Part shown: positions 9,865 through 59,030 of the stretch, one piece after another
How the letters are laid out: each line of letters opens with the position of its first letter
How positions within the stretch are numbered: the stretch's first letter is position 1
NCBI GenBank assembly: GCA_036172245.1
Contig: JAYWIR010000002.1
Coordinates: 1,178,001-1,242,000, forward strand
Reading direction: 5' to 3'
Length of the DNA: 64,000 bases
From: Raillietiella orientalis
Taxonomy: Eukaryota
Translations under genes and position numbers: made by a program
Notes under the pieces: model-generated
Database searches by the model: none
Seen by the model: the letters and a program-made list of their open reading frames with translations, nothing else
Told to the model about the DNA's origin: nothing

Positions 9865-11330
9865 AGCTAAAATACCCAAGATTCCCTGGGGTTTACACAT
9901 CAACATGCTTTACAGTACCTGAAACTTCATTGTGGTTAATGTGTGAAATTACATAACTGGCTGCAGGGGGACATTCTTCCTGTACATTCTTTCGCTGTTG
10001 CTGTTCTGTTCCTTCGGGGCGCTCCTCGCTCCCTCTTTATGGTGCTTCCTCCGCTTGCTCCCTTTAGTACGGTGGGAGAGGATCGTGTGGATTCTCCAGA
10101 TGGCTATCGGCTTTCCTTGCGACATGGACTGCATATATACCACTTGAGTACCGGTTACACGTAGCCACCATCTGTTGCCTCAGTTGCACTAGCTTCTTTT
10201 TTGGTATTCCTATAGCTTGTAATACTTCTTTACCAGGATGCCCTGCTCCCAGAGAGCCAACGATGAACGCATGTACTTTGTTTTGTTTTCCACCTTTTCC
10301 CAGTTGCATCGCTAAGTCCTTGTATTTTCCTTCCTTGATCTTCTTGGCTGTGCTGAACGCCTCTTTTCCATTTTCGTATGGGCATCAGACGTCTAGCACA
10401 TATCCGGTTTCCTTTTTGCATGACCAGATCCGGTTTTAGGCTGGAAGTTCTTCCTAGCACTCTCTGGCTTCCTCACACACGACTCCACTTTGCTTCATTC
10501 ACTGCGGCCTTCCTGATTATTTCTTGAATCGCGTTGTGGAGTGCCATGATTAGAGGAACGTGTTTCTTGCATCTATTGAGACATCACGTGAGACAACGTT
10601 TCGTCTTCTGTCCCACAACGACGACATATGCGTTCTTCTGTTTTTTTTGTCGGCCTATCGTTGATAGACAATAGGTTGAATCTTGCTGTGTGAATGTACT
10701 TGCAATCCTAGAATCTTAGGTGGTATCCATTAGTGTGGAAAAAGCTTGAAGCATGATGCATGTCCACACACTGCATGGCATTACCTTGACTAATGTGATT
10801 TTGGATTAAGGATTGCCATTCGTGTTCCCTTTGCAGTGTTCTCACGCCAGAAGTAAGGTATCTTCTCGTGCTGCTGGTGAAGATGACGCCGTCGACCGTA
10901 ATACTCGGTTCTCCATCTTTGAAGTTCCAGCGGGCTTTCGCTCGTTTAAAGGCCTTCCTTCCTTTTGACCAAAGGCTTTCTGTATCGTTGCCGGATTGTG
11001 TGATTCTCCTGTATGAAATCTCGGTCATGAATTCCCCGGGATTTCCATTTGTCAGGGCTTCGCGGATTCTTTTTTGGACCACTTCACCTAGAGTTTCATG
11101 CGCCAACCTTTTTACCACATTGTCCCTCGAGGTAAGTAACTTGAAGCAGCTATCCATGGTAAACATGTCAGACTCGTTAGCTAGCTTCATCAGTTCTAGG
11201 CAGATTACGAAAGCTTCTCTCCTCGTAAAGGTATTCGTTGGCTGTCCAGGATGGGAGGTGCAAAGCCTTCTTGATGGGGAAGAAGAAGGTTTTGATTGCA
11301 TCCATCTTCTGCCATCCCGATAGTTCACTA
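9865..11330 (-). mobile_element. Utopia/NeSL-like retrotransposon, 5'-truncated (post-RT, CCHC, REL endonuclease, 3' UTR)
   Basis: ORF 10708-11328 contains DSCFKLLTSRD...SLWSKGRKA...QGNAMQCV...SSFFHTNGYHLRF. Downstream are IHTARFNL, LHNAIQ, LKPDLV and AFIVGSLGA...MVATCNRYSSGIY, all hallmark R2-group REL motifs. Confidence 0.85.
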
Positions 11331-11334
11331 TCTA

Positions 11335-12075
11335 GGATGGCACTCGTCTTCTGGCAAATGTCCTCTTTGGACTAGCCACCAACGGAGTCATCCACGAGGT
11401 GCGAGTCCTCGAGTACAAGCGCTCCATGCAAGGGTGGATAACCCACAGGGCTCGCGAGCTCTGGCAAGCCCAGGGAGCGCAGTGGTCCAGGGTCAGCGTC
11501 CTAGCCGACAGTGTGCAGATGCCGGTCGCAGTCACCTCAGAGGAAGCGCTGAGCAGGACGTGGGCAGGTTACGTTCAGGATTGCCTCCTGCTGTTTTATC
11601 ACGGGAGCATCCTGTGCGGGACGAGACTCCGACGCTGGACCGACGACGACCAGTGCCTGGCTTGAGGATCGACAGAAGACGACCTCCATCGATACACCTG
11701 CCGCATCCTTGTCCGCATCCTTGGAAAGGTGCTGTGAACCATCGGATTGGACAACACCTCGAATCTGGAAATCTTGCAAGGGCTGTTAGAGAGCGAAGAC
11801 GGATTGCCCCGCTATAACCCTACTGTACGGGTGATCATCTCCTTCTTCCTGAGGAGCATCCTCATCAGAAGGACGGGCTGCACGTGCAACGCCCGGGACG
11901 ATCTGCAAGGAAGAAAGAGATCGGCATTCGTGCGTGAGGGAAGGTACCATCTTGGACTCTCCAGCACTGCCTGAGGATACTGTAGTGCCGACTAGGACGA
12001 GTGAACCGCACTGACACTAGAGACGACCGACGAGTCGCCAAAGTGACAGTACTTGTTTGTTTGTTTAATAAATTC
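11335..12075 (+). mobile_element. L1/Tx1-like non-LTR 3' fragment
   Basis: zf-RVT-like HGSILCGTRLRRW..DQCLA*GSTEDDLHRYTC; ends with (TTTG)n followed by AATAAA at ~12066. GC-rich compared with its flanks. Confidence 0.55.
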
Positions 12076-12832
12076 ACCCCATCGCTTGTCGGACTGGGGA
12101 AAAAATGGAAATTTTGAATGTGAATTTGATATAGAAGCAGTAACAAAGTATGCAATGATATTGCAGTAAAAATAAACATTCTATCATAGGAAATCATTCA
12201 GCAGAAGTTATAATTGCACTTTGTTTTTCATGCAATTAAGAATTACTAAAACAATCATATTCTACACGCATAGTATCATGTTACGTATAATGAAAGATAG
12301 CGATAATCCTAAAAAATGCATGAAATTCAAAGATATTTCTGAACTTTTAGGTTTTTTGAACAAATTTCGATTTTGGGGCTATAATTTCTTGAAAAACACA
12401 TTAGTGCTCACACTCATATTGTTTTCTTAAGAAATGAAAGATATGTTTATTGAAAAGTTTGAAAGATTGACTTGACTCTGGCATGCACTCACTATTATGA
12501 TAGTATTTTCCACCATAGCTCATGTTTGAAAACTCATTTTAATAGTTCCACGAACAATAGAGATAAGGGATTTCTGATGAAGCTTGAAGTATTCATTAAG
12601 TGGTTATAGGATCGTATAATTGGATTCAGAAATACAAACAATGAAATACAAGTGCACTGTGCTTTTCTTTCAAGTTCCTTTTAATTTAACATCAGCAATA
12701 CCAGCTCAGCCCCATAAAAAGTTTGCCGAGTTCCCATATGTGCTCATCGTATTGTTTTGCGAATTGATTATAGGGAATCTGGTAAACCTGACATTTCCAA
12801 TGTTTTTACGGTTGATGACAACGTGCGTGCAG

Positions 12833-15800
12833 ATGGGAGTTGCAGAGGAAGTTTCTCAAATGGATAGCGTCCACAGGAATGTAAGTGCTCACTTCAAAAA
12901 CAAAAGCTTTTTCATTGTTTGTGGTAGCATTTTCTTAGGTTGTTCGATTGTAGTTTTTCAATATTTTTTTGCAAGAAGTCTCGAAATTGTTAGCTTCAGT
13001 TAGAATGATTGCTTATTGATGTTAGTAAGCTTTTGACAAAAACATCGTTAGGCTAGTAGAGGTTTCAGAATAGTCAGTGAACTGTAAACAGGTATCTTGG
13101 ATGATTTTTAAGTATCTGTAACTTAATTGAGTTGATTGGATTGTTTTTGCCTTTCGGGATTAATGTATCCCGCGTGCATGTATAAAACTTCTACCGTTTT
13201 TAATTACTGGAATTTCGGAAGCAAAGTACTGCTTTTACTAAAGGAGCATCCGGTTTTGACTCTTATATGTAGGTGTAACTTGCACAATTGTACTGAGAAA
13301 CCAGTACGATTCAAATCTTTGATTTAAAATGCACTAACAACGAGAGGATGCAGCCAGTAGAACTGTGGCTGGCTTTGGTTACCTAATTTCCCAAAATTGT
13401 CCACAAATGTATATGTGTGAAGGATGCATGAAGTTGATTTTCATGTACCTTCTGCATACGCAACTTAATGCAGATTTTCGCTGGGAGCTATGATGAGAAA
13501 AGTGACGATTGTTCATTCATTATGCACAGTTCTTTGCATTCATCATGAAAAATTCAGCCACAAGACAGAGTTTTTCACAATTCAGTAGCCATTGTTGGAA
13601 TTTTTTTCATAATCAGCGTACTTTGTATGTCAGTTGAGAGTGAAAACACTAGAAAATTTATTTTCAATTAATTTGCATCTAAAATAGACCATAACTCTTT
13701 AGGAAACAGAGCTCATGGTTGTAATACAGTGTTAATTCAATAAGGGATTCATCATAACTGTGTTTTAGTATGAAATGAAAAGTTTCTTTACAGAAAACTA
13801 CTATTTCATCCCTGCACCCATTCCTTATCGTAGTTTTATTTTCCAAATCTTCATTTAATTGCAAAATTGCAAGTAAACTGAATGAATGAATTTCATGAGA
13901 ACAACCAAATTTATTGGTAATTAATGTAGCAGTATTTTCTGAGTTCATTATTATGAAAGTGGATTGCAATGATAGTGTAATTTATTATTGTTTACTTAAT
14001 TGCTGCAGTTGGATAACTATGCATTTAACATTACTTATTGATTTAATAATGAATTATCTAATTATTTGTGAAAATGTTGAAATCGCTGTTTAGTATTTTA
14101 TTATATTTCATATAATAAATTATTTGTCAAGCATTTGCCTATTGTACAAAATATTTGTTTTTTCTTTCGTTACTACTTTGCTATATGGTTTGATGGTAGC
14201 ATGTAGTGCCATATTTGCTTATGTGCAGTTGCTCAATACAAATTGTACATGTTTCATATTGGTTTTTGTAGAAAATTACTGAAGTGGAATTTCATCAATT
14301 TTTGCTATTGCTTATCATCAGTGCTTTATCTTATCCATCTTGTAAGTAACTGACAGGTTCTTTTATTTTTAGGTGGAGAGTTCAGTGAAGGCAATCTTTC
14401 AATTGCAGCAAACTTTGAAACCATCAAAAGTTCAATTATTTGATGCAAATAAACAAGCAATACGCCTGCAAATAACATGTATAAAATTGATTCCAAAAAT
14501 CAAAAGATTAATGAAAATGTAAGTAACAGTGACATTGCATTTTCCCAAAATAAAAAAAAAATTAAGCATGATCTAAATTTCAAGGAATGTAACTTTCAGC
14601 TGGTGTGGGAAAATCTATTTACCATGTGCGGAATATGTGCTATATTTCTAATTACCTTGGCAGTGAAATAAAGAAAAAAATGCAAATGAGTGAGTGGAGG
14701 GTGAAAAATGAGATGGGCATATTTTGGAGACGAAAAAATGTTGGAGGAGCAAGATATGATGAACACTTACGAATGTTGCAGAGAATATTTTAGTAATGAC
14801 TTGGTTGGCCCAGAATAATGTTTGCCCTCTAGATAGAATATAAGCTAGGAATGTGGTTATTGCTAAAAAGCAAGAAGTAATAGTCCAAGTGTTCAATTTG
14901 AGATGCCTATCTAAGACAAATAAAAGTTGCATGAAAGATAAAATAATTTAGAACTCCTATGTCCAATCATCCCTTTGCTAACCTTCTTAAAGCATGTCTT
15001 CTATAATTGCAAAATCTGTATGGGTTCAAAAAAAAGTGACCCATACAACCTCATGTCACTTTACTTTTTAGGTTGCAGACCATCTCACAGCTCTAGCTGA
15101 AGGTTCCCTGAAGTTCTTGTATGTCTGTCATCATTTTTTTATCCATTCTGTTCTGAAGTTCTTGGTTCCATCTTTTTCACTAGCCTGCCCATTAATGTTT
15201 TCCTTACTTGCCTGAAAACTTACCTTGTTTACATAGAAGGGATTTTCATACCTCCTTTATTTTCAAGGAAATATCCATGGTTAATCTGAGACTTATTGTG
15301 CTACTCTCCTTACTTACTGTGCTACTTTAAACTTCCATATCAACAACTTATTGTTTTACCTTCAAAATCTTCTTTCTGTTGTATATTTTTTAATCTCAAT
15401 TCCATGTATCTTTTCAGATAGTAATACCAACTGTATTACACACACTATCCTTTCTCAGTTCACCCTTCAATCCTTCCATTAAAGACAAGTCTCACACAAA
15501 ACTAACCATCCATTCCCTCACATCTTCCATTATTTCCTACTACTGCTTATACCTTTCCTGTTCTAAGCTTTTGATTGGATTCCTCTTAATTTATCCAATC
15601 TCCATTTGTTATGATATCCCAGAGAGGTTTTTTTGTTTTATCAGATGAATGCCCAACACCAACAGCTAATTCTGCATATTCACACAAATTTTACCTTACT
15701 GCCTTAGCTATCTCATCTTTGCCCCCATTTTTCACATTCTTCACCCATCAGTCTCTGTCCCAGCCTTCTAATGGTATGCTTTCAAAAGGAAAGTTTCAGG

Positions 15801-17672
15801 AGTCTTATATTTTTTTATACCCTTTGTTATTTTCAATTCTCATTTGACTAAGACATCTTCATCCAGCTGCACATTAGACAAAAAAGATATGGGGCTTCAC
15901 ACGATTCTACTGCCATAAATTTTAGTCCTAGTTCAAAGCTAAGGATTAAAGCAAATCTGTGGTTTGGAATTTCTGATTGTGCAATTATGAATACTTGTTT
16001 TGCAAATTTTAACCTATCTTTTTAATGACAATATCAACAATCAACGATTTGTTGAAAATGTTTTTCATTGTCATTTGTTTATGCATTTTAAATTATTGAC
16101 TTTTTATAGGAATGTGATTCCATTTTGATGAGTAAATCTTTTGTAAATAATTATTTATTTTGCTACATTAGTGTCCAAGAAAGACAATGAGTGCAGGATA
16201 AAGATTGTTGTGGTTATTTCATTATTTGCCATCGTTTTATAGTATTTATTGCCTTTAATTAGATTGTTTTAGCTGGACAATCACGTTCTTTTTCGTTATA
16301 TATTCGTCATTTAGGTGAGAAACAGGATATAATCAGGTTTAGGTGTATTGCATAGATGAACTATATGATCAAGTCTGTATGCCAAAGAAAAGATTGTAGT
16401 AAATTGTTTATATTTTGCTGTTTAGGGATGTCTTTGCCCAAAAGCCTTCGAATATTCGGAAATGGATATTATTTAACTGCACATTTTTTGTTTTCAAGTA
16501 GCATAAAAATTTTAAGGATAATAAGAAAGCTGTGGCCGAGCATAAATATATCGTCAAAAATATTAATTTTTACATTTCCAAGATATAGAATTACGAGCAC
16601 ATGTTTTCTTGCTTGTGGGTTTGAATGAATTGTAAATTCATTTTTGTCTGCATAAAAGTACTGTGTTCTTTTCATGATCTTAATATTTTCTTCATATTTT
16701 TAGAAAATTACCACACTGTTTGTATGAGCATGATGCTGAAATTTGCTTGTTAGTCGCTGATGATGCAGGTATGGATCCAGAGGATAAAGTCAATCAGGTT
16801 AAAGAATATTTGGCTTCCCATAATATTACTTCAATTGATAAGGTTTCCTGTGAGTGTCATGTTATACCAGTGTTCATGCTTGTATGCTAGGTAGTGACCT
16901 TGAAACAAATCAGAACAGAATATGAGCCCTATGAATGTAGAAGACGGCTTTCCAGAATGTATGATGTATTCTTAGCAGAAAGATCTTTAATTTCACATTT
17001 GCCTAAAATCCTTGGAAATGCATTTTATTCACGACATAAGTAATTGTATACAGCATAAAACATCAATTATTGTTGTTTTAGGTTTCCTATTCCAATAAAT
17101 TTGCATTCAAATAATTTGAAAGATCAGCTTCAGCAGTGCCTCTGCACAACTTTTCTTCCTGTTCAGGGCAAGGGTTCATCAAGCATGGTTACCGTAGGTG
17201 AATTGTGCATACAAACGTTTTTTGTTTTTTAAGGTATAATCCAAATAGGGAATTCTCAACAGACAGAAACACAAGTAGTTACCAATATCAAGACTGTACT
17301 CAATAAAATTGTTGAACAGTTTCCTGGAGGTTTTGCTAATGTTCGAAGCCTCTACCTCAAAATGGATGGTGTTGCAATAGCTATTCCATTTTATGCAAGT
17401 TTAAGTACGTCTGTGATTGTTGTACTTCATCAGCCAATTTTAATTGTATTTTATCAATCATGTTAGAATCGAATAATGAAATACAGATTCCTAACATCAA
17501 GAAACCATTACCAGATAAATTTGAAGAACTAAGTACACAGGAAGGAATGTTAGTCAGAATAACAGATCAGAACCAAATTCAACTGAAAAGGGACAGAGCA
17601 TGGAAATCATATGGGCCAATGTCCTCAAAAATGATGAAGCGGTGTGTCAAGAATCCACCTGTCACAACATAA
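12833..17672 (+). CDS. RSL1D1: Ribosomal L1 domain-containing protein 1 (RSL1D1/CSIG/Cic1-like), 7 exons: 12833-12880, 14373-14518, 16704-16842, 16891-17039, 17082-17197, 17249(or 17234)-17404, 17467-17672
   Basis: All introns are GT-AG and phase-compatible. Spliced product: MGVAEEVSQMDSVHRN-VESSVKAIFQL...IKLPHCLY..DAEICLLV...VVTLKQIRTEYEPYECRRRLSRMYDVFLAE...LPKILGNAFYSRHKFPIPINL...FPGGFANVRSLYLK...IPFYASL...ELSTQEG...*. Exon 1 is less certain than the others. Confidence 0.88.
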
Positions 17673-18249
17673 ATACTATTTTGAAATACATTTATATATG
17701 TTTTTGTATTGATGTTTTATTTGCATTACAAGAATTAAATCTGAGTAGAAGGAGGCGAACACTAGTCTCTGATTCGAACTATCAGTTTGTAGAACAAGTG
17801 GATGTAAGCAGACAGTAAAAGCTGATAGTGCAAGATTGGAAAATTATCCAGACTGACCACTGGGAGTGTCGGCTACAACATCTTTTATTTTCCTCACCTG
17901 GTATGAAGATGGAAACTGTCAACAGAAAGCTGTCGCCAGAGATTTGTGTAGTAGTCTTTAGGTGCTTTTAAAGCATCTACTACATGAATTGTCTTCCTAG
18001 AAAAACAGAGGACCCTCTATAACACATTCACAGAAAAGTGAACAAGTAAGGGCAGGGCCAGATACAAAAGAACATCACGGAGGAAGCAGACGCTTTTTTA
18101 TCCTCTGCTTACAATCTTGCAGTCTCCATGTCAGTAGTCTGCCTCTGATGAGTAAGCTTGCAAGGGGCCTGGTCAGTTTTGTTTTTCAGCCCTCCAATAG
18201 CAGAACTATCTTGCTGATCGTGAAGCCAAATAGAAGCCTCCGTCAACCT

Positions 18250-28823: not shown

Positions 28824-29843
28824 ATGGGAAGTCCCAAAACATCTCCTCAAGGAGGTGGTCAAAACGCAGAGACAAAAGCCTCTTCCTTCCGGATCCCGCA
28901 TTTGGGAGCCGTGTTGGCTTTCGTGGTGGCTCTGCTGCAGTCATTTGCCTACGTATTGGTGAAACAGAACTCCTCTCTGAATCCCCATCTGTTGTTGTTC
29001 TACCAGAGCATAGGAATTACTCTTGTCACTTTCGCTGCTGAGTTGTGGTTAAAGCACGACATCTTTCCGAAGAAGTTCACCGTGAAACTTGTGCTGCGTG
29101 GAATCGTCGGGCCCACGAATGTGGTACTCCAATATTTCGCCTTTCAGCTTCTGCTTTTTGGTGACGCCTCGATCATTGTTTATAGTGCCGTAGTCTTTGT
29201 AACGATCTTTTCTCGCATACTTCTGAACGAACCCTGCTATCTCGTAACACTCACATGCATCTTCTCCACGGTGATTGGAATATCCTTGATTGTGAAACCA
29301 CAATTTTTGTTCTCCACGCTGCAACCTCATGGAAAAGACTATTTGTTGGGAGTCACCTACGCAGTTCTATCCTTGCTAACTTCATCCTTCATCTACGTCT
29401 TGCTTAGAATGATGAAAGACATTCATTACTGTGTCACCACCTTGTACTCAGGAATATTCGGCATAATCGTCAGCTTCGTCCTGATCACACTCACGAAAAG
29501 TTTCAGAGTCCCCTGCTGTGGACAGGAATTTCTTACTGTGGGATTCCTCAGCATGCAGTCTCTGCTGGGTCAGTGTCTATTGAGCAAAGCCTTGCAGATA
29601 GAAGAAGCGTCTGTCGTTTCCATGTCCATGACTTCGCAAATTGTGTTTGGATTCCTTTGGGGAATATTTTGGTTTGAGGAGTACCCGGATGTTTTCAGCA
29701 TCTTAGGTGCCATTGTAGTCACGATCTCCGTGATCGTCGTCGTAATGTACAAGAGCTTACTTCATCTGCCTGATGACTCGCGAATGAAGAAGCGCTTTCG
29801 GTTTTTGGTAAACGAACCGATTTTCGTTTTCGGTAAAAAGTGA
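28824..29843 (+). CDS. SLC35G1: Solute carrier family 35 member G1-like (two EamA/DMT domains), intronless, 339 aa from the ATG
   Basis: Uninterrupted ORF with ~10 hydrophobic segments and family motifs LVLRGIVG, GDASIIVYSAVVFVTIFSRILLNEP, LIVKPQFLF, GQCLLSKALQIEEA and SILGAIVV. First ATG at 28824 (the track starts at a TTG). Confidence 0.9.
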   Translation: MGSPKTSPQGGGQNAETKASSFRIPHLGAVLAFVVALLQSFAYVLVKQNSSLNPHLLLFYQSIGITLVTFAAELWLKHDIFPKKFTVKLVLRGIVGPTNVVLQYFAFQLLLFGDASIIVYSAVVFVTIFSRILLNEPCYLVTLTCIFSTVIGISLIVKPQFLFSTLQPHGKDYLLGVTYAVLSLLTSSFIYVLLRMMKDIHYCVTTLYSGIFGIIVSFVLITLTKSFRVPCCGQEFLTVGFLSMQSLLGQCLLSKALQIEEASVVSMSMTSQIVFGFLWGIFWFEEYPDVFSILGAIVVTISVIVVVMYKSLLHLPDDSRMKKRFRFLVNEPIFVFGKK

Positions 29844-34199: not shown

Positions 34200-34830
34200 T
34201 TGTGGCGCGTGTACGTGACGTTCGCCTTGACTTGGATACAGAACCCTCTAATATCTCGTCAATGTAACATAACCGATATTCGGCAGTGTGTGAGAAATAC
34301 GGTGCACAGAACAAGCGAAGATAAAGATTGTGGATAAAGAATTTGAAGAATTGAAAAACGTGGGTAGATCGCATCCTGGCTTCGGGCTCCCATACAATGA
34401 AACAGAGGCTGAAGATATGTTTGCTGCTTTTTGCTATTCGGAAAGTCTTGAGGAGCACTGAGATACTTTGCACTTTGTTGTGAATACTCATGGATTGTAA
34501 TTGGACACAGGAATGGGCACTCTAGGTCATCCAACCACCGTTCATGGTTCGTCGAAAGCACTATATGATAAAGCTCGTGAAAAAAGACACTGGGCGTTAG
34601 TACGTCATGTAGCTGGAATGTTGTGTAAACATGTAGCAGATCTCTCTAAAGATCTAGCTACAGATTTGTTAGTGCTTCAAAAGCAATTCACTGTGGGCAT
34701 GCCACCTGATCACGAGCAAACAGCTGTGGCATTCATGCCTCGTAACGAACTTGGACATTTAATTCAGACAGCTTATGGTGATGATAAGATATCAGCAATG
34801 CTAACTCAAGAGTTGATGTTTTTACTTGGC
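34200..34830 (+). pseudogene. PHKA: Internal fragment of phosphorylase b kinase regulatory subunit alpha, processed-pseudogene-like
   Basis: YNETEAEDM...SESLEEH*DTLHFVVNTHGL*LDTGM...LYDKA..KRHWALVRHVAGML.KHVADLSKDLATDLLVLQKQFTVGMPPDHE...LIQTAYGDDKISAMLTQEL strongly matches PHKA. In-frame stops; continuous without introns. Confidence 0.85.
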
Positions 34831-34999
34831 GATGTTGACTCGTCTAGTGAATACGAGTCTAAGATACGGAAGAGTATGCTGGCTCGCAAAGCTAGTATGG
34901 CCGTAAAAAAGACAAGTTCAAAAGAAATAAAGGAGGCAAGGGAGGAAGAGGGGGGAGGGGGGAAACGCGGAAGTGAAGAGCACTCTCTTCACTTCACTT

Positions 35000-36199: not shown

Positions 36200-37740
36200 A
36201 AAAAAAAACTACCCAGATCGAAAGTCAGAACCAAACCAGAATGAGGAACGCACAAAAGGATTCGAATCCGAAACTGGGAGCAAAGACTCCTAGGATAAAG
36301 TTTTGAGGTACGGAATAAAATTACAGGAGGTCTTTCATCCGGTCACTGGGGATGTTCATTTTATAAGAATCAACCAGTTGGGAACACGCTGGTTCCCAGC
36401 CGAAGATAAATCAATTTCAGAAGGAGCATCCACCGACACGCAGGTCGGGATATCGGTAAGACCAGAACAGGAAAGGGGAAGGTGAACAGCAAAAAAAATG
36501 AGGAAACCGGGAGGATGGGGCAAGGATCTTTGGGATTGCTCCGTATACACCGGGATCAACATATAAGAACAGGAAAAGTTACGGATTGAAAAGGAGTAGG
36601 GAATGAGAGAAAAAAAATGAAGGGAAGCTAGGGACACGGGTGACCCCTATCACCAGTGTCTGCCGTTCCTTCATTTCAAAACCAGCGCTGGATGCCGGCG
36701 ATTTCCTCCTTTGTCTCTTCTTCCACGTGGCAGCCTCCCTCCTGTAGGTGGTTGTCGTGCGGGTTCTAGAGTCCGCTCCCGTGATGATGCAGGAAAACTC
36801 CCACCTCGCCGGTAAGCAACTGTCATTGCTTTCTCCTAGGAAGACAGCGTTTCGGCTAAAGGTGTTGCGGATGCACGAGTCCGCTTGGTCGGTTCCTCGG
36901 CGATTCCTGGCATGGACATCCTATTGGGACACCTATTGGTCCGGCACGGGATCTTGCGGCCTCGTGCTGGTCAAACGAACCCAAGTATCCACAGATTCCT
37001 GCCTCCGAGCATGAAAGTTCGAAGGAGATCCACTCGCTGCTTTCCAGTGGATAGGAAGCTTCAAGGGAAATCCCAAGTGCTCCTCCGTCAATTTCCGGTT
37101 GCGAGGAAGCAAAGTTTCTAGTCCCTCGTAATCGGTCTTTCGGTGACAATGCGGCGAGCAGGGAGGCACTGCTGCTGGTTTCATGCCCTCTTCATCAGGG
37201 TGTCTTCGGAAATAGAGCTGCAGCTCCATCCTCGGAAACATCAGCATGCCGAGTTCGGCGTCCTCCATGAAGCAGCAATGTTCTTGAGACGGATGCGGAA
37301 CCGCAAGGCGCCCCCCAAAGAGTCTTCCTCAACAGTCCATCCGCCTGTTGTTTTGCCTCAGGGGGAGGGAAACAAACAAAAGGAAGGGCAGAAAAAGAGT
37401 TTCACATTAAGATCCGCTCTCCCAGGTGGAACCTGCCTTCGGGGGATGGGTTAAGAGTTTTCTCTGCTCTTTGAAGACTGTCGGACCACTCCACGACTCA
37501 GCAGAAGTCGCCAACGGGCACGCCAAAGCGTTCGAAGTACCTGCCCGTGTGAATCCCCCAGGCGGATCCGGCATGACTACCCTTACAGTTACGCAACCAC
37601 CAAGACAACCGTGCACTTTTGCATGTGTACCCGATCTATGCCTCATCAGATCGAAGAATTTCTTTTCGAGAAGTTGGCCAGCGTTATCCCATACCCGCTC
37701 AGCACCAACTCAAAATAGATGCTCAACAAGATAGGGCTCA
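36200..37740 (-). mobile_element. Tx1/L1-like element, post-RT to 3' end with T-rich tail
   Basis: 36650-36730 is the reverse-complement homolog of 39400-39490 (GCCGGCATCCAGCGC...GAAGGAACGGC). zf-RVT-like region upstream. Confidence 0.7.
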
Positions 37741-37744
37741 GACT

Positions 37745-39770
37745 GTCTCCTTGCCATATTCCTCGGGGCACTGGCACGTCGTAAATCTGGCGACCGCTGA
37801 AACCGATGTTGATCGCGCCAAAGAGAGAGCAAGTACTGGAGCAAACTGTAGGGACAGCCTTGTTCCAGCAGGAGATCCTGGATCACTCAGTCAAAAGCCT
37901 TATAGAGATCGACTGCGACCTCCAGAGCATCTGCTCCTCCATCTGCCTGCGAGTATGCCGGCTGTGGCCACCTATACGGACCACCTGCTTCTCCCGCTGC
38001 CCATGTCCACCCCGACGGCTAGTCTCGAGGATTTCTTCGTGCTGCTTTCCGTCAGAGAGCAGGCGTGAGCGTTAACAGGAGGAAGAGCACGGTCGTTCCA
38101 GTCGGACCTTTTCAAGGTCCGCAAGAAAGCATCCCGGACGGACCCGGTATATTTTCTTCCTGCGGGCCTTCAAAAGGATGAAATGGCTCTTGACCCATTC
38201 CTCGATGGCGAGTTCTTTTCAGAGCTGACCGCAATTTGGAACGTTTTCGTTGCCCCCCTCCTTCACTCTCTATTTTTGGTTTCTTTGCCAGGCTACTCGG
38301 TCAAGATCGGAGCGCGACGACTGTTGTGAAACGTTTTGTAGCGACCTGCGACGTCGAGGATCCGCCTTAAAGACTTGGCGGCACCTCGTCAGGATGTTGG
38401 TTTAGGCATCCTGACTCCGGAAAGAATCAGGCTTCAGGTGCAGTTTCAAATGCTGACACTTTGCTCCAAGCTGTGGAATTTCCCGTGGTGTACACCAGCA
38501 CACCTCATCCTTCGGAGATGGGCCGGCAGCGGAGGAATTATATCTGCGTTGCTGTCGCACTTTCGCTCCAGAATGCAGGGACTTGGCTCCTCCCTGAGGC
38601 AACTTCTCTCCATTCTGGTTGCCCATCCGTGAATTTCCTGGCGCCCAAAGAACTACAATGGCCTGGATGCAGGAGGCGGGCTGCAAATCCAGAGGAGCTT
38701 TGCCTCCCTACGTCTCTTCATCAGCCATCCTTTGGATGAAGTGATGCCGAACTCTGCGAAGTGGTCGACTCTGGCCGCCACACTCCTTGCCGCAGTGCTG
38801 TCTTCCCTCGTAGAAAACAATGATTTGCCTAATAGAGGGGTGGGAGTTTTCCATTAAGGAAAGACAAAACCCCTTGGTGTCTGGAGGACGCGCGAGTTGG
38901 CGGACAGCGCCACCCCGTGTACCATGGCGAAGGGACTACCTTGGCGAAGCCGCTGCTAAATGCGTCCCCCAACGAACCAGTGATCCCTCCCCTGTGTCGG
39001 AGCACCTCGGTGTCTCTGTGGGAGTGGAAGCGCAAGGTGCTGCTGTTTTTTCCTCGGAGACTCCAGTGCAATCAGTGCTGGCACCGGGGGCACTCCGGGG
39101 GAGCATCCCCGAATGCTGCATCCCCGAACTGCGCCAGGTGCGAGCCCGCGTAGTCGATGCTGCACCTGCTATACGACTGTGGTGTCCTCCACGAACTGTG
39201 GCGGAAGCTGACTTGGGCTCTCCAGCGACAGGAGGACACTGCCCGTGATCTGCCGCGGAGTTCGCGTGTGGCGGACTCGCGGCTGGTGGAGCAATGTGTC
39301 GCGTCCGCGCCATCGTCACGACCCGCCCTGTACTGCCTACGCAGACGTAGCGAAGGGGAGTCACCGTCACGGTAGCCGCCTCCATGAGGACGGCTGCTAG
39401 ATGGCCTCACCTAAGGGAAGACCAGATGGAGATTGCCGGCATCCAGCGCCAGTTCTAAAAAGAAGGAACGGCCGAGACCGGTAATTCGTGTTCCCACCCT
39501 CCACTTATTTATTTACTTATTTTTTTGTCTCCTCTCACTTGTTCCGGACATTCTTCGTTTTTTTTTTTTTCTAGAAGAAACGAAACTAACCAAAGACTCG
39601 TGTCCCCACATTTTCCATTCCGTTATTCGTTTATTGTCCCTTTCCCTTTTCTTCCGTCCCCTACTTTGAAATGTCCCGACCTGCATTTAAGTGGCCCTCC
39701 TCCCCTCGAACTTCTTTTGTCTTCGGTTGGAAGCCGAGTTCCCAATTGGTGAATTCTTTATTAAATGAGC
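37745..39770 (+). mobile_element. Tx1/L1-like element, RT domain 4 to 3' end
   Basis: AVATYTDHLLL..LEDFF (RT5); SPNCARCEPA*SMLHLLYDC (zf-RVT); C-terminus RWPHL...EIAGI; T-rich 3' UTR ending near ATTAAA. Confidence 0.75.
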
Positions 39771-41065: not shown

Positions 41066-42930
41066 TCATTTTCCATCAAAATAAACGTCCCGGTGCAACC
41101 GGGTGAAAAGTCTTTTGAAGGCAGTCCGACCACGCTTCGGTGACTCCAAATACGGCCAACGGAAAGCTAAGGTTCTTGAAATACCTGCCGATAGGGGTTT
41201 CCAGACGGATCCAGCCAGACTACTTCTCCCACGTCGCGCCGACTGGGACGACCGTGCTCTTTCTTCTGTTAATGCCCACGTCCGCTCTTCGAGCCTGAAG
41301 AAATCCTCGAGCTTAGCCGTCGGCATGGACATGGGCAGCAGAAGAAGCAGGTGGCCCGCATAGGCTGCCACGCCTGGAGTACGTGGACGGGGGCTTGGCC
41401 GTTTGGCCAACGTCAGCTTGTGCGCCTTTAGCAAGAACTCAAATAAGATACTGAAGAACAGGAGGCTTGAACTGTGGCCCTGCCCGGTGCCTCTGCTAAC
41501 GGGAACACCGTAAACGTGGCAGCCGCTGAAAGAAGTGCTGGTGACCGCCTGGGACAGCAGCAATGACATAGCAGATGTTTCAAGAGACCGAGGCGCTCCA
41601 GGAGCTCGAGAAGAAGCTCTTGGTTGATGCAGCCGAACGCCTTATAAAGATCACTGCGGCTGCCAAGGTTTCTGGCGTATTCTCCCGCTGACTATACCTA
41701 CGTACTACACCGCCTCTCTGCTGCTCGGCTTTAAAGCGCGAGCCAATCCTGCAGCGTTATTCACTCATCCACACCCATGCAAACAAGAGTTTCGCGCCAA
41801 TGGACCGCCCGGGCAAAGCACAAGTGGTCTGCTCCAGGTTTACCAATGACTTCGCAGCCCTTTCTAGCCGCAGGCCCACAGCTTCGAGAACAAGTCGACG
41901 TCCTGGTTCACCAAGGTCATAGGATGCCAGCTGTTTAGATGGAGCAAGTCTCCATCTCTCGGCAAAAAATGCATCTTCGCCAAGCGTGAGTCAGGTACAT
42001 CGCCCGTCTCCCTCATCAACCCCCAGAGCTTAAGCACTAGGGAAGCTAGAGTTCTGCTCCCAGCATTGAAAGGAATCCGCAAGTACGCCATCCTCACTTG
42101 GCACCGCCCTCCCTCTCTTGAACGCCGAGATGGCGAAAGAAACTCGTTCTTTGGTGAAGGGCTCGTCGAGACGTGCGCTTTCCTCCTCGTCCACGGCGGA
42201 AGTTTCCTGTGGCAGGAGTAGTTGGGAAAAGTTGCTTTCCGTCGGCGCCTCCGCTTACAGCAAGGAGCATTTTGGCCTGATAATGCGACATCTACACTCC
42301 TCATTTGCTGCAGGAGATGCTAGAAAACCCACGAGATCCCCCCGTGAGCATCGTTTGCACCCTTTGCTGAGATGCTACTGTCCCTAAGGGAAGCAAGGAA
42401 CAGTCGCAATCCGACAAAGTGGGAAAGTCACCTACTGCATTGCAGCAAAAAGGAGAATTCCGGACAACACGGGAGATTACGGAACTCTGCGACCCTGAGT
42501 GTCCCACCCATTAGGACTCGTACGCTGGAGCAAGCTGCTCGGAATTACTCCAGAGGATCTGAAGCGTCCACCAGAGTGCCGGAACAACGGCACCGTCCCT
42601 CTCAAGTGGTAGGAGTTGACGCTGCTGGTCATGCATCGAAGAATCCCATGCAAAGTACGCCTTCATCACTGGACCCAGGTGAGTGTGGGCGAGAAGTGTG
42701 ACAGGTGCTGGGAAAAGAAGATCCTCCCGCACCTACCTCTAGATTGTGCTGTCCTTCCATCCCTTTGTCTAGCGATTCGGTGCTTAGAACCTTGGTGAGC
42801 GACCCCAGAAACATTTTTAAACAACTCTTCGTGCATGCCGTGCTGCTCGAGTTCTGTGCTGTCTTTGCAGAGTAGTGGCGGTCTGGAAGGCGGCAAGAAG
42901 AGGCCAGAATGGAAGGGACGCCAATCAGTG
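41066..42930 (-). mobile_element. Tx1/L1-like element, end of endonuclease through RT
   Basis: FLPRDGDLLHLNSWHPMTLVNQDVDLFSKL (RT1-2); GVPVSRGTGQGHSSSLLFF (RT4); VAAYAGHLLL (RT5). Confidence 0.8.
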
Positions 42931-43299: not shown

Positions 43300-45960
43300 G
43301 GCTGGAGCCGAGCATCCCGGGCCCTGGTTTCTCGCAGCTGCTGCTGCCGGAAGGTGCTCAACGATAGGGGAAGAGATGAGAGAAAGCATTCCGCGAGCCT
43401 TTCACGATCGGTGAGGTAATCACCACCATCGACAAGCCTAGGAGACGGAAAGCTCCAGGGAAGGATGATAAACCTGCAAAGTTCTTTCAATGCTCCGCGG
43501 CGGATCTGACCCCAATGGTGCAGAAGCTGACAATACCGATTCGGGAAACGGAGATATTCCCGTGTCGATCCGGTCAGCAAGGGGGCGTGTCTTACCTGAG
43601 GGAGGAGACCTGAGCAAGATCAGCAACTGGCGTCGGATTACCGTGATTATCAAGATGGACAAGTCGGATTATCAAGATGCCAAGCTGCTGGCAAAACTAC
43701 TGGCTGAGCGACTGGGACGGATGGCAGAAACCATAGCTAGCTCGGAACAGAACTTTGGCTGTTCCCGGGAGAAGTATGGACGATGCCAACCTGTTCTTCG
43801 CCGGTACATGGTTTGAGTTCCAGAACGAAAAGAACGCAATCGGTAGCCTGACCTTTGGGTCTCTCGCTGGTCAGGGGCTAAAAGGTCAGGCGGGGAAGGA
43901 GGCCCTTGAGAACGCAGTCGATTCGCACAACGCTTTCGGCTGCGTGGACGAAGTTCTTCCGGAGTGCTCCTGGAACGCATGGGCTTCCCGGACGCTTTAA
44001 TGACCTATCTGCGCTCCTTCTGGCACGGCGCGCTGATTAACGTTTCCTTTCAGCTGTACGGCGTGCCGGCGCGCTGCGGATTACGGCTGGGCGATGGTCT
44101 CAGCCCCTTGCTTTTCAGCACCTACTCTGAGATGGCGTTGAGGGCACACCTGGCTCACCTGCCGCGGGTGTGCCCTGGTACGCATGACGTGTCGGCGCAA
44201 GTCGGCGATCATCTGCTGCTGCTCTTCACCCCGGCATCATCTCTCGAGAGATTTGAGTTGTTGAGTCGGGGCACGGGTGTGAACCGGGCGAAGTCGTCCG
44301 CAAGGCGGCAGTTGAGGCGACTCGGGCTAGACGGCCGGACTGGATCCGCTCGGGGATTCCCATAGGCGGATACGTGTAGCACCTTGGCGTTCGGTTGGGG
44401 AAGTTCTGCCTAGCGGAAGCCTAGCGCGAACGTGTTCAGAAGGCAGAGTCAGAGCTCGGCTCGTTCCGAAATGGCAAGTCCCTCTTGTCGGAAAGAAAGG
44501 CCAGAGGAAACACGTTTGTGACCCCCATCCTCCGCCTCCTGCTTTGTGTTTGGCTCCGCCCGATAATGTACAAAGGCGGACCAAGGACGTTCTGCAAACA
44601 GCCTTCTGAGAAGCGTAGAGGTCCCGTGTCCGCTTAAAGGAATTGTGCGCTCCGTGTCAGGACGGTGATCTTGATTTCCTGACTCAGGAGCAGATGGGAC
44701 AGTTGCAGTTGAAAAGACTGGCACTGGAGGGAAAAATGACTTCACAACGCATTGGTGCCTGGCAGAGCGCATGCTCCTCGATGAGCCGAATCAGAAGGAA
44801 TTACATCCTTTTTTGATCTACAGCCCTCCATGACTACCTCGATGCAAGAATCACCTTCGGCAGATGGTTGCCTTGGTTCAGTAACATAATACATAGATCT
44901 CCAGTTCGCCCACGGAATGTAGTGTCTGGAAACAGGAAAGCGTTCAGACGTTGGCGAAGATGAAGGGCACGAGCTTGGAGGAAGCGCAACGTCTGCGGTA
45001 CTCCATTTAGGATCGCTGCTCCTTAAAGGAGATCATGGAAAGTCCCAGGAAAACCAAGTGGGCGCAAACAACAACACCTACGGCACTGGGTCCCTGTGTG
45101 AGAACTCAGATAGTAAAGAGATGGCATATTGGCAGAGTCCTTGCGAAGTTGCAGGAAGGAAGAAAGTTTTGGGTTGTTGGACATTGCGCCAGACAGCTGA
45201 CGCTTTCATCCTTGCTGCCCACTCCAAGAGAAACTTCTCCTCTGGGAGGATCTTCTCTGAATCCCCTTGGAAGGAGTGAATGTTCCCGCGGCTCTCGTGG
45301 GCAGCTCTATGCTTCCCCTGGAGTGACAGAATTCGCCGTTGCAACTGCTGCATCGGGCTCTCCCATGCAACGCCTCCACCACTGTATCGGGAGAAGGGTG
45401 GCTCCAGATTATGCCAGGTGCAGGTGCGGCGAAAGGGGAGCCTGGACTCACCGAGAGACTCGCGAGAAACTTGCTGAGAGGCTTTTTCACTTGCGGCGGA
45501 ATGTCGTCTGCGGCGTCGATCGCAGCTCTGTGCTGCTTACGCGGTGTCGTGGCGGTTAAATGCTGCGATGACGCTGAAGACCAGACCAACGGAGGCGCCT
45601 TTCCGTTGGTGATCTTTCTGAAAATGGCCAATAGATGGCCGCATCTCTCTCAGCAGAAGGAACTTGCCGGCATCCTGCAAAGGATGCAGAAGACACCAGG
45701 GAGTACACTGTGATCCCTTCGCTACCATCCCACCCCACCCCAACATTCCGGATTTTGGGGAGTTACATAGCTATTTATGTATTTATTTTGTCCATTTGCT
45801 TTCCCCCTCACTTTTCCCTGCGCGAATTTCTTGCTCCTGAGCAGTGACTTTCTCCAGGATTGCCGAAGCAGTGGGATCGCCGCCCTCCCACTGCGTACTA
45901 ATGGCTTTTTTTTTTTTCCTGACTGTTTTTTTGTGAACATTCTTTTGCAATGAACGTTCC
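43300..45960 (+). mobile_element. Tx1/L1-like element, RT to 3' end
   Basis: EPFTIGEV..KAPGKDD; LPEGGDLSKISNWRRIT; KLLAKLLAERL; VPGRSMDD; LERMGFP; GLRLGDGLSPLLF; VGDHLLL; C-terminus RWPHL..ELAGIL; T-rich tail. Confidence 0.85.
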
Positions 45961-54550: not shown

Positions 54551-54614
54551 ACTGCTGCTTGTCCAAATGGTTAACTCTATGTCCCGAGATTTCAGCTCCG
54601 GAGAAGCCTGGTGC

Positions 54615-55500
54615 CTGCGTCGGAGGCTACATGGCCACGATCTCCGCGCGTGGCACCAGGCGTCGCGGGTTCGAATCGGTTTCGGAAAGAATCGACACCG
54701 AGAGACGAGGAGAGATGCCATGGGTTCGAGTTCCTCCCGCAAGATGACGCTGGTTACTCATCTTCGGGTGCCGCATCGATGGTGGTTAAAACCGAATGCC
54801 TCGGATGAGTGGCCGGGATTGGGAGTCGACCCTCCAGGTCTTTCCAGGAAACAGAATCAGGAATTTCGGTTCTCTTCAGGGGTCCCCTCCGTTTGCGCAT
54901 AGCAGCGGACTCCCATTTTTCTTCAATGGAGTCCTCCGCCTGGATGGATATTTATCTCTTTCCAGAGTACAAAGGAGTGTGCCGCTCCCTTCGGGGAGCG
55001 TTCTTCTGAGAAATTTCGGAAGCGTCCTTGCCAGGTTCCCTTCAGAAGGGGGAAACCAGGATCGGTTCCCTTTTGCGGGTTCCCTCCGGAGATAAAAAAT
55101 AGAACAGTCCTCTTCAGGGTCCCCTTCAAAGACAACTAGGGTGGAGGGTTCCTTTCGAGAATCCCTCCCTAGGCGTGAGAGGAACGGACTCACTTCCCCG
55201 GAGCTCTTTCTGGATCCATAGGGCAGTTCCCTTTCGGGATACAGTCTATCTTGAAGAGTCATACGCACCCTCGGGTGGAGTGGAACAGAGTGAAAGAGCT
55301 GTGTGAGCCTCCAGACGCTTGACGGTTCCTGAGGACTCAGCGACCCCCAAAAATGAAAACCTGGAAGAAAAAAAAAAAAAAAGCTGGAAGGAAAAACAAC
55401 GAAGATAGAAAAGAACCCCAGACGGATCTCCATCATCGCTCGAACGTGCTGCCATTCCTGTGGCATGAGAAGGCGCGTCTTCACCACCAGGGTTATGCCT
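54615..55500 (+). mobile_element. Composite element copy A: tRNA-derived head + hairpin array + antisense LINE-like 3' end
   Basis: Colinear homology with 57526-58610. B-box GGTTCGAATC at 54668; perfect GCTCCC-TTCG-GGGAGC hairpin at 54984-54999; A-rich tract at 55350-55415. Confidence 0.7.
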
Positions 55501-55639
55501 TTCCGTATGAGTTCCAGCGTCTCACGGTCCTCTGCTTCGATGGGAGTTTGTGGTCTTCCGCTAAGGGCTTACCTACGTAGTTCTGCACTCGGTGGTTCGA
55601 AGGGTGCCCTATTAGTCTGCGTCTGGTAACTGTCGCGCT

Positions 55640-57525
55640 CAAGTTTGAGAGGGGCACCACACTGCCAACGTATCAGACTTGTTGTTGCACTCTCTAGAAA
55701 TGCGGTTTTCTTGGCTGACAGTCAAGGCCCTACCACATTCCATGACGAGCTGTGGGGAGGAGCGCATTTGCCGGGAAGAGGCTCTTCTAAGAGGGAAGCG
55801 AAATTCAGGAACTGAGTTCCTGATATCCTTAGACGGTCTGTCTTGCACTTGGCGGTTCCTTTGATCTCGCATAGGAGATCGCTTCCATATATCTGGGCAG
55901 CTGAAAGTGCCATAATCTTCGCTCTCCGCATCCTGCATTTGGTTTGCGATGAATTAGGAATCTTACTAGCCGTCATCTTTTTTTATCCACCACGGGATAC
56001 TGGTGGCAATTGCCTGCACCAGTGCTTTTCACACGAGGAATGAGGAAGCCGGAAATTGCTGCAAGACGGAAGGTTCTCTATACCGAATTGCGGCAAGTGG
56101 ACCTTGGTCCGTAGACTTCCGTTTCACTTCTGCCCTTGTCCAAGTTACTTGCAGACATCTCCATGATCTCGATCTATTCGCTGGAGCAAACTTCATCACG
56201 TGAGCGATGCAAAGCTCACTCCGTACACGATTCATGTGTACTCGTGGTAAGTAAGGTAACCGTGGGCAGATACGAAGCGTAGAAGATAAAGTTCACAACG
56301 GAAGTTCTCTGCCTTTTTCGTGGCTTTCGTGCCTCACATCCTCGCTTTGTACTCTTCCGTTTTCATGTCTATCCTTATTTCTGATTCTATTTTATTCCGT
56401 ACCAGTAGAAAGACCACTCTGGAAACATTCGATCGTTCCGATGCCCGTCCGTGAATGCAAAAGTCTGCACCTCTTTCCGTCATCAAAACTCAGGTTTCTT
56501 GGGATTCATCTTTGGTCTTTTATCCATTCCAAGTTTGCATCCTTGCCTTTCGTGAACGGATTGAAAGGAGCGGGTTGCCATCGGCAGCGTCTCCCGACAG
56601 CTTTTTCCGAATGCATCCTGCTTGTGCCACACGAACTTTTGCAGATCCTGTTTCTGGGTAAAGCTCTCACAGCAGTGAGCGTTTGTCGCTGGACCACCGC
56701 CACATCTTGCAGGAGGAAGACTGGCGCACACACATTCGCTCCGGAGGAAAGACCATTTCGCAAAGACAGTCTTCCGCTATCGAAAGACTCAAGCGCGTCT
56801 TGCTGCATCCAGCCCCCAGTGGCCATCCAGAAACTGCTTGCGAAACTCGAAAGTTCTCATCCGGGCTCGTCACAGATTCAGCAGGAAGCAGTAGCTCTCA
56901 GAAGCCGCCATCGGAGTGAACCAGAAGTTCACGTTCCCTTTTCGAACAGGGCTGTCATAAGCACGCTTGTATCTATGGACGATTATCCACATGTCGATAC
57001 GCACGGATACCGGTCCAAACGTATCATGGTGTGTGAAATTGATCGGAAAAGTGGGCAAGGATGCCTCGGTTGGAATGATCCTTTCTGGAACTGCTCTTCA
57101 TTTTGTGACCGGGACCGGTTTGATGAGATGCTCACTTTCGCAGTCCAGTTAGTGGAGTTGAGAAGTCTGTTCTTGCTCTCCCAAGATTAATTTTGATGCC
57201 AATGGAATCGATCTCGATTGGTGTTCCTGGTTTTCCGTTGAAAATTCTAGAGAATTCGGGAGGTGCTCCGAGGCACCCCAGTCTCCGAGACAAGCGTGCG
57301 GATGTGCAACAGACTTAGCTCTCTACAGGGAATCTCCAAACCTAGGAATTTCCGCCGCTTTGATTCTGCATCGCGGCGTTCCTGCTGCTGAATGGGAAAG
57401 AAGGACCGAGCTCTGCGCCTGCTATGGAATTCTGTAAACATTTGCTCTTGAGCTCTTTATTTCCAGTACAGGGTACCAGAGCCTCCGTACAAAAACGAGA
57501 TTCCGCATTCTTGGTCAGATGAGCC
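55640..57525 (-). mobile_element. BEL/Pao LTR retrotransposon pol, 3' part (RT, RNase H, integrase), decayed
   Basis: GISFL, RSFFPIQ..ERRDA..RKFL, GLRK*AS (LRKWASN motif, 57126-57146), AASESY, CSKTRLS, QKFV and the integrase-proximal LLEEPLP...VVGP. Confidence 0.65.
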
Positions 57526-57595
57526 CTCGTCGGAGGCCTTGTGGTTAAGGCTTCCGCGCGTGGCACCATGCGTCGCGGGTTCGAATACTTCGGCA
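57526..57595 (+). promoter_or_regulatory. tRNA-derived (Glu/Asp-like) pseudo-tRNA head with Pol III A and B boxes
   Basis: AGGCCTTGTGG (57534-57544) and GGTTCGAATAC (57578-57588) at tRNA spacing. GTGGTTAAGGCTTCCGCGCGTGGCACC..CGTCGCGGGTTCGAAT resembles tRNA-Glu, but the acceptor and anticodon stems do not pair. Confidence 0.65.
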
Positions 57596-57729
57596 GAAAC
57601 TCTGACGCCACTGCGTCGTCGGGTTCCGAGTTTCTCCTGCAATGGCGCTGGTTGGCCGATGACATTCGGGCGTGGCACCGGTGGTCGTTTAAGCCGGAGG
57701 CCCCTGATGGAGGCCGGAACAATGGGAAA

Positions 57730-58310
57730 TTGACCTTCGGGTCTTCTTAGGAATAAAGGAGTGGGAGTTCTCCCTCCGGTCGTACAACGGAGAGCGAACC
57801 CCCTCACCGGGGGACCCCTCCGGTTTCAAGATGGAGCAAGGAGCCCTCACGGGCACCTCTCCAGTTTCTCAAAGGAGTGGACCCCCCTGTTGGGGGATCC
57901 CTCCGAGTCGTCGCCTCTTCACAGAGTGTGCACAAGGAAGCAAGCGAGAGCGATTCCCTGCGGGAAGCTGCAGCGCCCCTTCTGAGTTTCGGAAGCGTCC
58001 CTTCGGGGTTCTCTTCAGAGGAGTGAACAGGAGTGGTTCCCTTGCGGTCCCTCCGGAGAAGAAATTCCTACAAGCGGATCCTTTCCGGGTTCCCTTCGGA
58101 GAAGTTGAAATGAAGAGGACCACCCTCCATTACGAGGGTGTCCCTCCGGAGAGAACGAGGAAGGAGATTCTCTTCGGGGTTCCCCTTCGGAGACAACCAG
58201 GGTTGGAGGTGCGATCCCCCCGTCTGGGGGTCCCTCCCCAAGCGTGAGAGGAACAGACTCCGAGCCTTTCCTGGATTCATAGGGCGGACCCCATTCCGAG
58301 GTGCCCCCTA
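57730..58310 (+). repeat. Array of ~10-12 degenerate hairpin units, period ~40-45 bp
   Basis: Unit = GAG(C/T)GGA-stem-loop-stem-CCCT(C/T)CGGAG plus a variable purine-rich spacer, starting near 57796, 57841, 57879, 57950, 57995, 58031, 58073, 58115, 58161, 58206 and 58282. Confidence 0.8.
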
Positions 58311-59030
58311 TCCTGAAGAATATTACACTGAAGAAGTACACGCCCCCCTGTGGGTTGCCGCGGGCGGAGAGACGTGGAAACAAAACAGTGTGTTAATGTT
58401 TAAAAAGAGCCACGTGCGCCGCGAGGCACGCGACCGACTTTTGACCTTACTTAGCGAACCAAAAAAAAGAAAACTCTTAAAAAAAAAGCTGAAAGAAAAA
58501 CAGCATGCAGAAGAAAAAAGAACCCAAGGATTTCCATCGTCGACGATGCGTGCACGTGCGCAAGTCCGCCTACAGGACCAACGTGAGGTGTGTCCTTGCA
58601 ACGAGCGCGTCCGAGTCCCATCCGTTTCCTGAGGAGCGAAGTGACCAGGCTTCCATCCCGGAACAAAAGGATCCACCCTCACCACTGAGCCGTAGCAGAT
58701 ATGCAAGATCCGGACGCTTTCAGGCGTCCGGATCTCACGGGTTCCCTTTCCTTTCCAGTACAGACTTTCCTTCGGGTAGATACTTTGCATTTCTGGGCAG
58801 GGCGATTGTGGAAAGCATTCGTGCCGTCCACGCTCCCTTACGATCACGATCTCCCGCATCAGGGTGCTGCAAACTGCTTGGTCTGCAACAGATTTTCGAT
58901 GTGCTCCGGGCAAGCCGAGCATTCCAACTCTCCCTTCGCACCTAGGAATGCCCTTTCCCCTTCCCCGTGTTTGTTCAGGTCGCAGCCTGATCTCGTGTTG
59001 CACACACTGCAGGCGTGCTGCTCTCTCTCG

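Follow-up and report, generated by a model that had tools for sequence, protein, structure and literature searches.

Positions 57526-58445 of a 64,000-nucleotide stretch of Raillietiella orientalis DNA (contig JAYWIR010000002.1; the whole stretch is referred to below as the window) carry a regular series of short GC-rich hairpins behind a tRNA-like head. This raises the question of whether the hairpins mark a gene for a structured RNA or are inherent in the sequence of a repeat. A preliminary description favoured the former and proposed a Pol III RNA of about 900 nt with covarying hairpins, antisense to a LINE-like 3' end. From comparisons within the window, the stretch is best read as one of two old and diverged copies of a non-coding repeat of about 0.9-1.1 kb. 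The window as a whole has a GC content of 47% and an observed/expected CpG ratio of 0.87.

Two copies of a composite repeat

Self-comparison of the window identified a related segment in the same orientation about 2.9 kb upstream of the flagged stretch. Using an nhmmer profile of both copies together with local alignments, we placed the limits of the downstream copy, which includes the flagged stretch and is called copy B here, at 57494-58567 on the plus strand; the same methods and the self-comparison placed copy A at 54585-55458, also on the plus strand. The edges of homology coincide in the two copies, no similarity was found between their flanks or in the intervening 2 kb, and the profile detected no third copy in the 64-kb window. 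Of 834 aligned columns, the copies agreed at 527 (63%); gaps took up 263 columns, and the array of copy B contained two stretches of 39 and 51 nt that are missing from copy A. Conservation was uneven, with four identity runs of at least 13 nt where 0.78 were expected (P = 0.008), and the two longest of these together form a 34-nt core that contains GGTTCGAAT.

The order of the parts is common to both copies: a head and a linker, then the array, the unique 3' part and the A-rich tract, with another 45-60 nt or so at the end. The tRNA-related head of copy B spans 57523-57590 on the plus strand, as do all the features that follow. It includes the 34-nt core at 57553-57586, the best-conserved piece of the element, in which 33 of 34 positions equal those of copy A in identity runs of 16 and 17 nt, with GGTTCGAAT at 57578-57586 inside it. 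A linker that is alignable with copy A (57591-57726) leads from the head to a degenerate array of about 12 units at 57727-58242, with a period of about 41-42 nt and a higher order of about 83 nt. The array is followed by a non-repetitive 3' part at 58243-58455 with conserved blocks, for example at 58242-58254 and 58278-58285, and by a terminal region at 58456-58567, which consists of the A-rich tract and about 45 nt of remaining homology to copy A. The corresponding core of copy A, again with GGTTCGAAT, is located at 54643-54676 and its array of about 9-10 units, interrupted by TTTT at 54916 and 55071, at 54817-55256. Since the homology continues for about 45-60 nt beyond the A-rich tract near the 3' end of both copies, this tract is not a terminal poly(A). 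Target-site duplications were found at neither copy, the only direct repeats at the ends being 6 nt long and at chance level.

The spacing of about 40-45 bp noted in the preliminary description was borne out by repeat families and by autocorrelation, with a period of about 41-42 bp; the array has about 12 units. Read over positions 57000-59000, each unit starts with a purine-rich spacer and continues with a short inverted repeat (C-run, loop, G-run) and a tail of the type CCCTYCGGAG. The autocorrelation of copy B peaks at lags 41-42 (0.345 versus a mean of 0.254, sd 0.026) and that of copy A at lags 83-84 and 40-41, the period of 83-84 being strongest in copy A. A 16-nt tail family occurs five times in copy B at spacings of 38, 43, 50 and 41, the members of a 31-nt family lie 83 nt apart, and the 31-nt and 14-nt families overall recur at 81-90 nt. 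TRF reported no array even at a minimum score of 30, because the units are too diverged. With head-to-tail units inside the 10-100 bp range of minisatellites and a unit number that differs between the copies, the arrays have the characteristics of a minisatellite. The reading as a discrete, repeated non-coding unit, in which a tRNA-related head with a B-box-like word precedes a regular array, is supported.

At the level of single motifs, CCCTYCGGAG with at most one mismatch was found 19 times in the window versus 6.7 times expected, and 10 of the 19 sites are within the two arrays. The three cTTCGg loops that had been pointed out, at 57732-57743, 57999-58008 and 58170-58179, all read as described. 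Within the tail is an 8-bp palindrome without a loop, CTCCGGAG, which is perfect in a minority of the units only. Neighbouring motif copies are able to pair with each other in alternative registers, as expected of a tandem repeat of a quasi-palindromic word. A unit HMM and a covariance model recovered the nine seed units and two further hairpins that had been assigned by hand, with only chance-level matches elsewhere across the window; at E below 0.1 the covariance model returned the nine seeds plus the units at 58074 and 55062. Units with unequal loop lengths were not aligned in register by MAFFT.

The tRNA-like head and transcription signals

The head had been described as a pseudo-tRNA with A and B boxes. 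ARAGORN called 0 tRNA genes, and in Rfam searches of 151 nt around either head no tRNA appeared even at E up to 10. The A-box pattern, with up to 2 mismatches allowed, matched 230 times in the window versus 241 times expected, and hence carries no information. The B-box-like word fared better: GGTTCGAAT is present at 4 sites in the window versus about 1 expected, is exact in both copies and is situated in their best-conserved core. Its other two sites, at 6190 and 7397, were not homologous to the head, with alignment scores of 21-26 that fall within the null distribution (22 +/- 3.2, maximum 38). The B-box-like word is present as described; the A box was at chance level and no tRNA was called. 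A tRNA origin of the head is plausible, to judge from the B-box word and from a resemblance of 57538-57552 in copy B to the D arm of a class II tRNA. The 29-nt core of the head had 0 matches in public metagenome contigs and 0 in genome contigs, and a gapped pattern from the 3' part had 0 matches in public metagenome contigs.

Two further observations concern the head. In copy A only, the core segment 54652-54669 pairs with the upstream segment 54598-54615 in a long hairpin that includes a perfect 10-bp stem; it gave weak matches to miRNA models in Rfam, the best with 27.4 bits versus a gathering score of 70, and copy B is without its 5' arm. Just 3' of the B-box word, positions 57570-57600 resemble by eye units such as 58175-58197 (GGGTTC ... 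CTTCGG ... AGA). Tandem duplication of the T-arm region may therefore be how the array grew. The head was not matched by the unit HMM.

As originally noted, copy B lacks TTTT over the 913 nt from 57526 to 58438; the run at 58439 is its sole TTTT. Copy A contains TTTT at 54916/54917 and 55071, inside the array, so a terminator-free Pol III unit of about 900 nt is not a conserved property of the element. In the minus-strand direction, the A-rich tract would read as long T runs ahead of the array, which argues against Pol III transcription of that strand.

The LINE-like 3' end on the opposite strand was not recovered: none of the 17 ORFs of at least 80 aa examined at 50.6-62.3 kb scored above the Pfam cutoff. 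In all, 27 nearby ORFs were examined, and none contained a reverse transcriptase or other Pfam family above the cutoff. Self-comparison showed no similarity between the element and other parts of the window, nor a partner LINE with common sequence. Frames at 43380-44362 (plus strand) that by eye carry decayed reverse-transcriptase-like motifs were not confirmed, as Pfam yielded no reverse-transcriptase match at E up to 0.1. Searches of the whole window against Rfam identified no family at gathering scores and only chance-level matches at E up to 10.

Folding potential and covariation of the array

We counted non-overlapping perfect stems with loops of 3-8 nt in the array of copy B. There were 15 stems of at least 4 bp versus 10.7 +/- 2.3 in dinucleotide shuffles, a number reached in 18 of 300 shuffles, and 5 stems of at least 5 bp versus 4.1 in the shuffles, with similar results for copy A. 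The two stems of at least 6 bp and the single stem of at least 7 bp were also at the level of the shuffles.

Folding energies confirmed that local self-complementarity exceeds that of shuffled sequences. The mean MFE of 24-nt windows in copy B was below all 200 shuffles, with z = -3.80 on the plus strand and -4.03 on the minus strand; the values for copy A, z = -2.24 and -2.49, were below nearly all shuffles. A consensus fold of the whole array from both copies (alifold) was below 60 of 60 column shuffles, with z = -3.48 (plus) and -4.03 (minus), and the raw local folding profile showed no strand asymmetry. The only energy measure that favoured the plus strand was the single-sequence MFE of the whole array, with z = -3.86 versus -2.06. 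Hence, the excess of local self-complementarity is real and equal on both strands. This runs counter to the proposed preference for the plus strand, for which mismatches reading as G-U had been cited. Because the repeated motif contains an inverted repeat and the CTCCGGAG tail, the capacity to fold comes with every unit, whichever strand is read. The fold potential is thus a property of the repeated word rather than the mark of a selected plus-strand RNA structure, and the evidence for its maintenance is at most weak.

The stems had further been said to differ among units and still pair. We assigned 21 unit hairpins by hand, 12 in copy B and 9 in copy A, in a register chosen by the analyst that biases the pairing counts upwards. 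In this set, positions 1-3 counted from the loop pair in 21, 21 and 20 of the 21 hairpins, mostly as a core of C-run and G-run. With the same hand-picked register, position 4 is Watson-Crick paired in 13 of 21 hairpins versus 4.6 with permuted 3' arms, with all four pair types represented, and position 5 in 8 of 21 versus 4.0. Pairing at positions 6-9 was at the permuted level. Read on the plus strand, positions 1-5 contain 9 G:T versus 1 A:C mismatches, G:U having been allowed when the register was chosen.

For a test on aligned units, we used the nine units with 4-nt loops in an ungapped alignment. The fraction of paired cells was 71.4% versus 64.5% in shuffled alignments (reached in 20 of 500 shuffles), and the covariation score was 0.325 versus 0.209 (reached in 8 of 500). 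When the 3' partner was slid by -1 column, 66.7% of the cells were still paired. Double changes between copies A and B numbered 13 on the plus strand versus 10.9 +/- 2.7 in column shuffles, of which 16 of 60 reached 13; on the minus strand the shuffles averaged 9.6 and 7 of 60 reached 13. Some orthologous hairpins look compensated by eye, such as 55146-55164 versus 58213-58232 and 54983-55000 versus 57954-57966, but the total of double changes does not exceed chance. What is left of the claim is a constant 3-bp core with pairing above permutation at positions 4-5 in the hand-picked register; covariation is weak among the units and absent between the copies. Together with the lack of strand asymmetry and the TTTT runs inside the array of copy A, this speaks against a structured Pol III RNA of about 900 nt.

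Origin of the repeat

The reading that we prefer, and to which we give about an even chance, takes the flagged stretch as a non-autonomous retroposon of composite, SINE-like (VNTR-type) structure, now decayed, or as a piece of such an element. Four parts would then make up each copy: a decayed tRNA-related head in which the B-box-like word survives, the array as an internal minisatellite, the unique 3' part, and the A-rich tract. The array has a unit of about 41-42 bp, in places with a dimeric higher order of about 83 bp, and a unit number that differs between the copies. Transcription of active ancestors may have started in the head or at a promoter upstream of it, a LINE enzyme may have copied them by way of the A-rich 3' region, and the array would have been lengthened and shortened by slippage or unequal exchange. 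Consistent with this, homology between the copies is collinear over the whole unit while the flanks are unrelated, the indels include the whole-unit differences of 39 and 51 nt, both arrays are periodic, an A-rich tract is present near both 3' ends, and the best-conserved piece is the core with GGTTCGAAT. The equal folding excess on both strands, the stem counts at shuffle level, the weak or absent covariation and the lack of a match to an Rfam family all fit as well. Several observations pull the other way. The window contains only two copies, 2.9 kb apart and in the same orientation, so mobility is an assumption of the model; there are no target-site duplications, the A-rich tract is not terminal, and 870-1070 bp is long for a SINE. 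Moreover, the head is not recognised by tRNA models, the A box is not above chance, and there is no partner LINE with common sequence inside the window. The uneven conservation and the pairing above permutation at positions 4 and 5 leave room for constraint, and the single-sequence MFE of the whole array favours the plus strand.

The closeness and common orientation of the only two copies in 64 kb, along with the lack of target-site duplications and of a tRNA call, would also be accounted for by a local duplication without mobility, in which one copying event placed a duplicate of a minisatellite-bearing non-coding segment close by, followed by drift of both; the tRNA-like words would then be a coincidence or the relic of an old tRNA pseudogene. 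We regard such a duplication as possible but doubtful, as homology edges that coincide in both copies stand against it, and dissimilar flanks and an unrelated intervening 2 kb are unexpected for a tandem duplication unless there was a later insertion. It is unlikely that the two loci encode a long structured non-coding RNA, made by Pol II or, starting from the head, by Pol III, in which selection keeps an array of mini-hairpins of the C(UNCG)G type that serves as a decoy, as a precursor of small RNAs or as a multivalent scaffold for proteins. Folding that is common to both copies beyond column shuffles, local folding beyond shuffles, the whole-array z-scores of -3.86 (plus) and -2.06 (minus), the unit covariation score of 0.325 versus 0.209 (8 of 500 shuffles) and the 913 nt without TTTT in copy B can be quoted for it, as can the 13 of 21 pairs at position 4 and the 9 G:T versus 1 A:C mismatches on the plus strand, both with a register chosen by hand and G:U allowed. 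These are offset by local and consensus folding without strand preference, by A/B double changes that on neither strand exceed the shuffles, by stem counts at shuffle level and by the 66.7% of cells that stay paired when the 3' partner is slid by one column. In addition, TTTT occurs in the array of copy A, Rfam gave no match, and the unit covariance model at E below 0.1 recovered just its nine seeds and the units at 58074 and 55062. The most specific version, a family of long tRNA-headed transcripts with some twelve mini-hairpins of the C(UNCG)G type, evenly spaced every 42 nt or so, that evolve by compensatory change and act as scaffold, decoy or small-RNA precursor, is improbable; the tests, which are based on the two copies and their internal units, weaken it.

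Symmetric self-complementarity is also what a function at the DNA level would predict, with the array as a set of putative palindromic sites for a protein (CTCCGGAG / TCCGGA type), the B-box core as a candidate TFIIIC-type site and the whole as a possible enhancer or boundary. A loop-less 8-bp palindrome in the tail is more in keeping with a dimeric DNA-binding protein than with an RNA hairpin, and the B-box core is conserved well above average. Such a function nevertheless seems quite unlikely, given that the stems beside the tails vary in sequence and that most units lack a perfect palindrome. Finally, 42 nt equals 14 codons, and long frames cross both arrays, at 57708-58247 on the plus strand (179 aa) and at 54876-55568 on the minus strand (230 aa). 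Two early unit spacings are 83 and 43 nt, and by eye the first tail spacings are multiples of three. A protein-coding repeat on either strand is still hardly credible: the later spacings are 38, 43, 50 and 41, many gaps between copies A and B have lengths not divisible by three, Pfam matched none of the minus-strand ORFs that cover the arrays, and long open frames are common throughout this GC-rich part of the window. It was rejected on account of the unit lengths, which shift the frame.

Among known systems, tRNA-derived SINEs appear to be the closest in kind to the retroposon that we favour, and VNTR composite retrotransposons the closest analogue in architecture. The element is similar to tRNA-derived SINEs in its 5' head with the B-box-like GGTTCGAAT, its non-coding body, its A-rich 3' region, its presence in more than one copy and its unrelated flanks. 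It differs from them in a head that neither ARAGORN nor the Rfam tRNA model recognises and whose A box is at chance, in a length of 870-1070 bp, in the lack of target-site duplications and in homology that extends past the A-rich tract. With SVA, LAVA, PVA and FVA, it would have in common a short SINE-like 5' module, central GC-rich units of about 35-50 bp in variable number, a unique 3' module and an A-rich end (PMC4432496, PMC3287187, PMC7353768). These elements are stated to be specific to hominoid primates (PMC4432496). Their modules are Alu-like and SINE-R or L1 derived; the likeness is one of architecture, without a sequence relationship. In a search of the literature confined to articles without their supplementary files, these hominoid VNTR composites were all that was found, and no account of a hairpin array inside a tRNA-headed repeat was encountered.

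Minisatellites embedded in transposable elements are similar in their head-to-tail units, here of about 41-42 bp with a higher order of about 83 bp, and in the gain and loss of whole units, but the units of this element are too diverged for TRF and each contains a short inverted repeat that folds on both strands. In the tRNA-miRNA units of gammaherpesviruses, a Pol III tRNA-like unit is followed by hairpin RNAs. The earlier reading would work in the same manner, with a tRNA-type promoter driving the hairpins downstream. In contrast to these units, the element has constant stems of 3-5 bp, which are shorter than miRNA precursors require, as well as about 12 units within 500 nt and, in copy A, internal T runs.

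As read here, the locus is of little significance, being a further example of a composite repeat that contains a minisatellite; the lesson is that a repeated motif with a short inverted repeat can mimic an array of covarying RNA hairpins. If an alignment of the family across the genome showed strand-specific covariation, or RNA data a discrete transcript, the locus would point to a new class of long multivalent hairpin-array RNA with a tRNA-type promoter.

A few other features of the window were recorded. Two perfectly matched 12-bp arms around a 6-nt loop form an inverted repeat at 58706-58735 (plus strand), about 140 nt downstream of copy B and outside the homology between the copies; its Rfam match to nrdJ is at chance level (E = 7.4). 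In the GC-rich part, two inverted repeat pairs, 36649-36706 / 39428-39485 (81%) and 37964-38105 / 41239-41371 (79%), with about 2.8-3.3 kb between their members, may represent the ends or fragments of another repeat. An exon-like ORF at 34537-34848 (plus strand) is similar to residues 806-901 of the alpha subunit of mammalian phosphorylase b kinase (E = 2.3e-13 in a PDB search) and matches the Pfam family Glyco_hydro_15; no match to this PHKA-like exon was found among longer proteins. At 28824-29840 (plus strand) there is an uninterrupted ORF of 339 aa for an EamA / SLC35G-like transporter, with a best database match of 24% identity. The window also shows a contrast in composition, with blocks of about 33% GC at 8001-18000 versus blocks of 50-60% GC at 36001-62000, and a TATATC-type microsatellite is present at 4792-5009.
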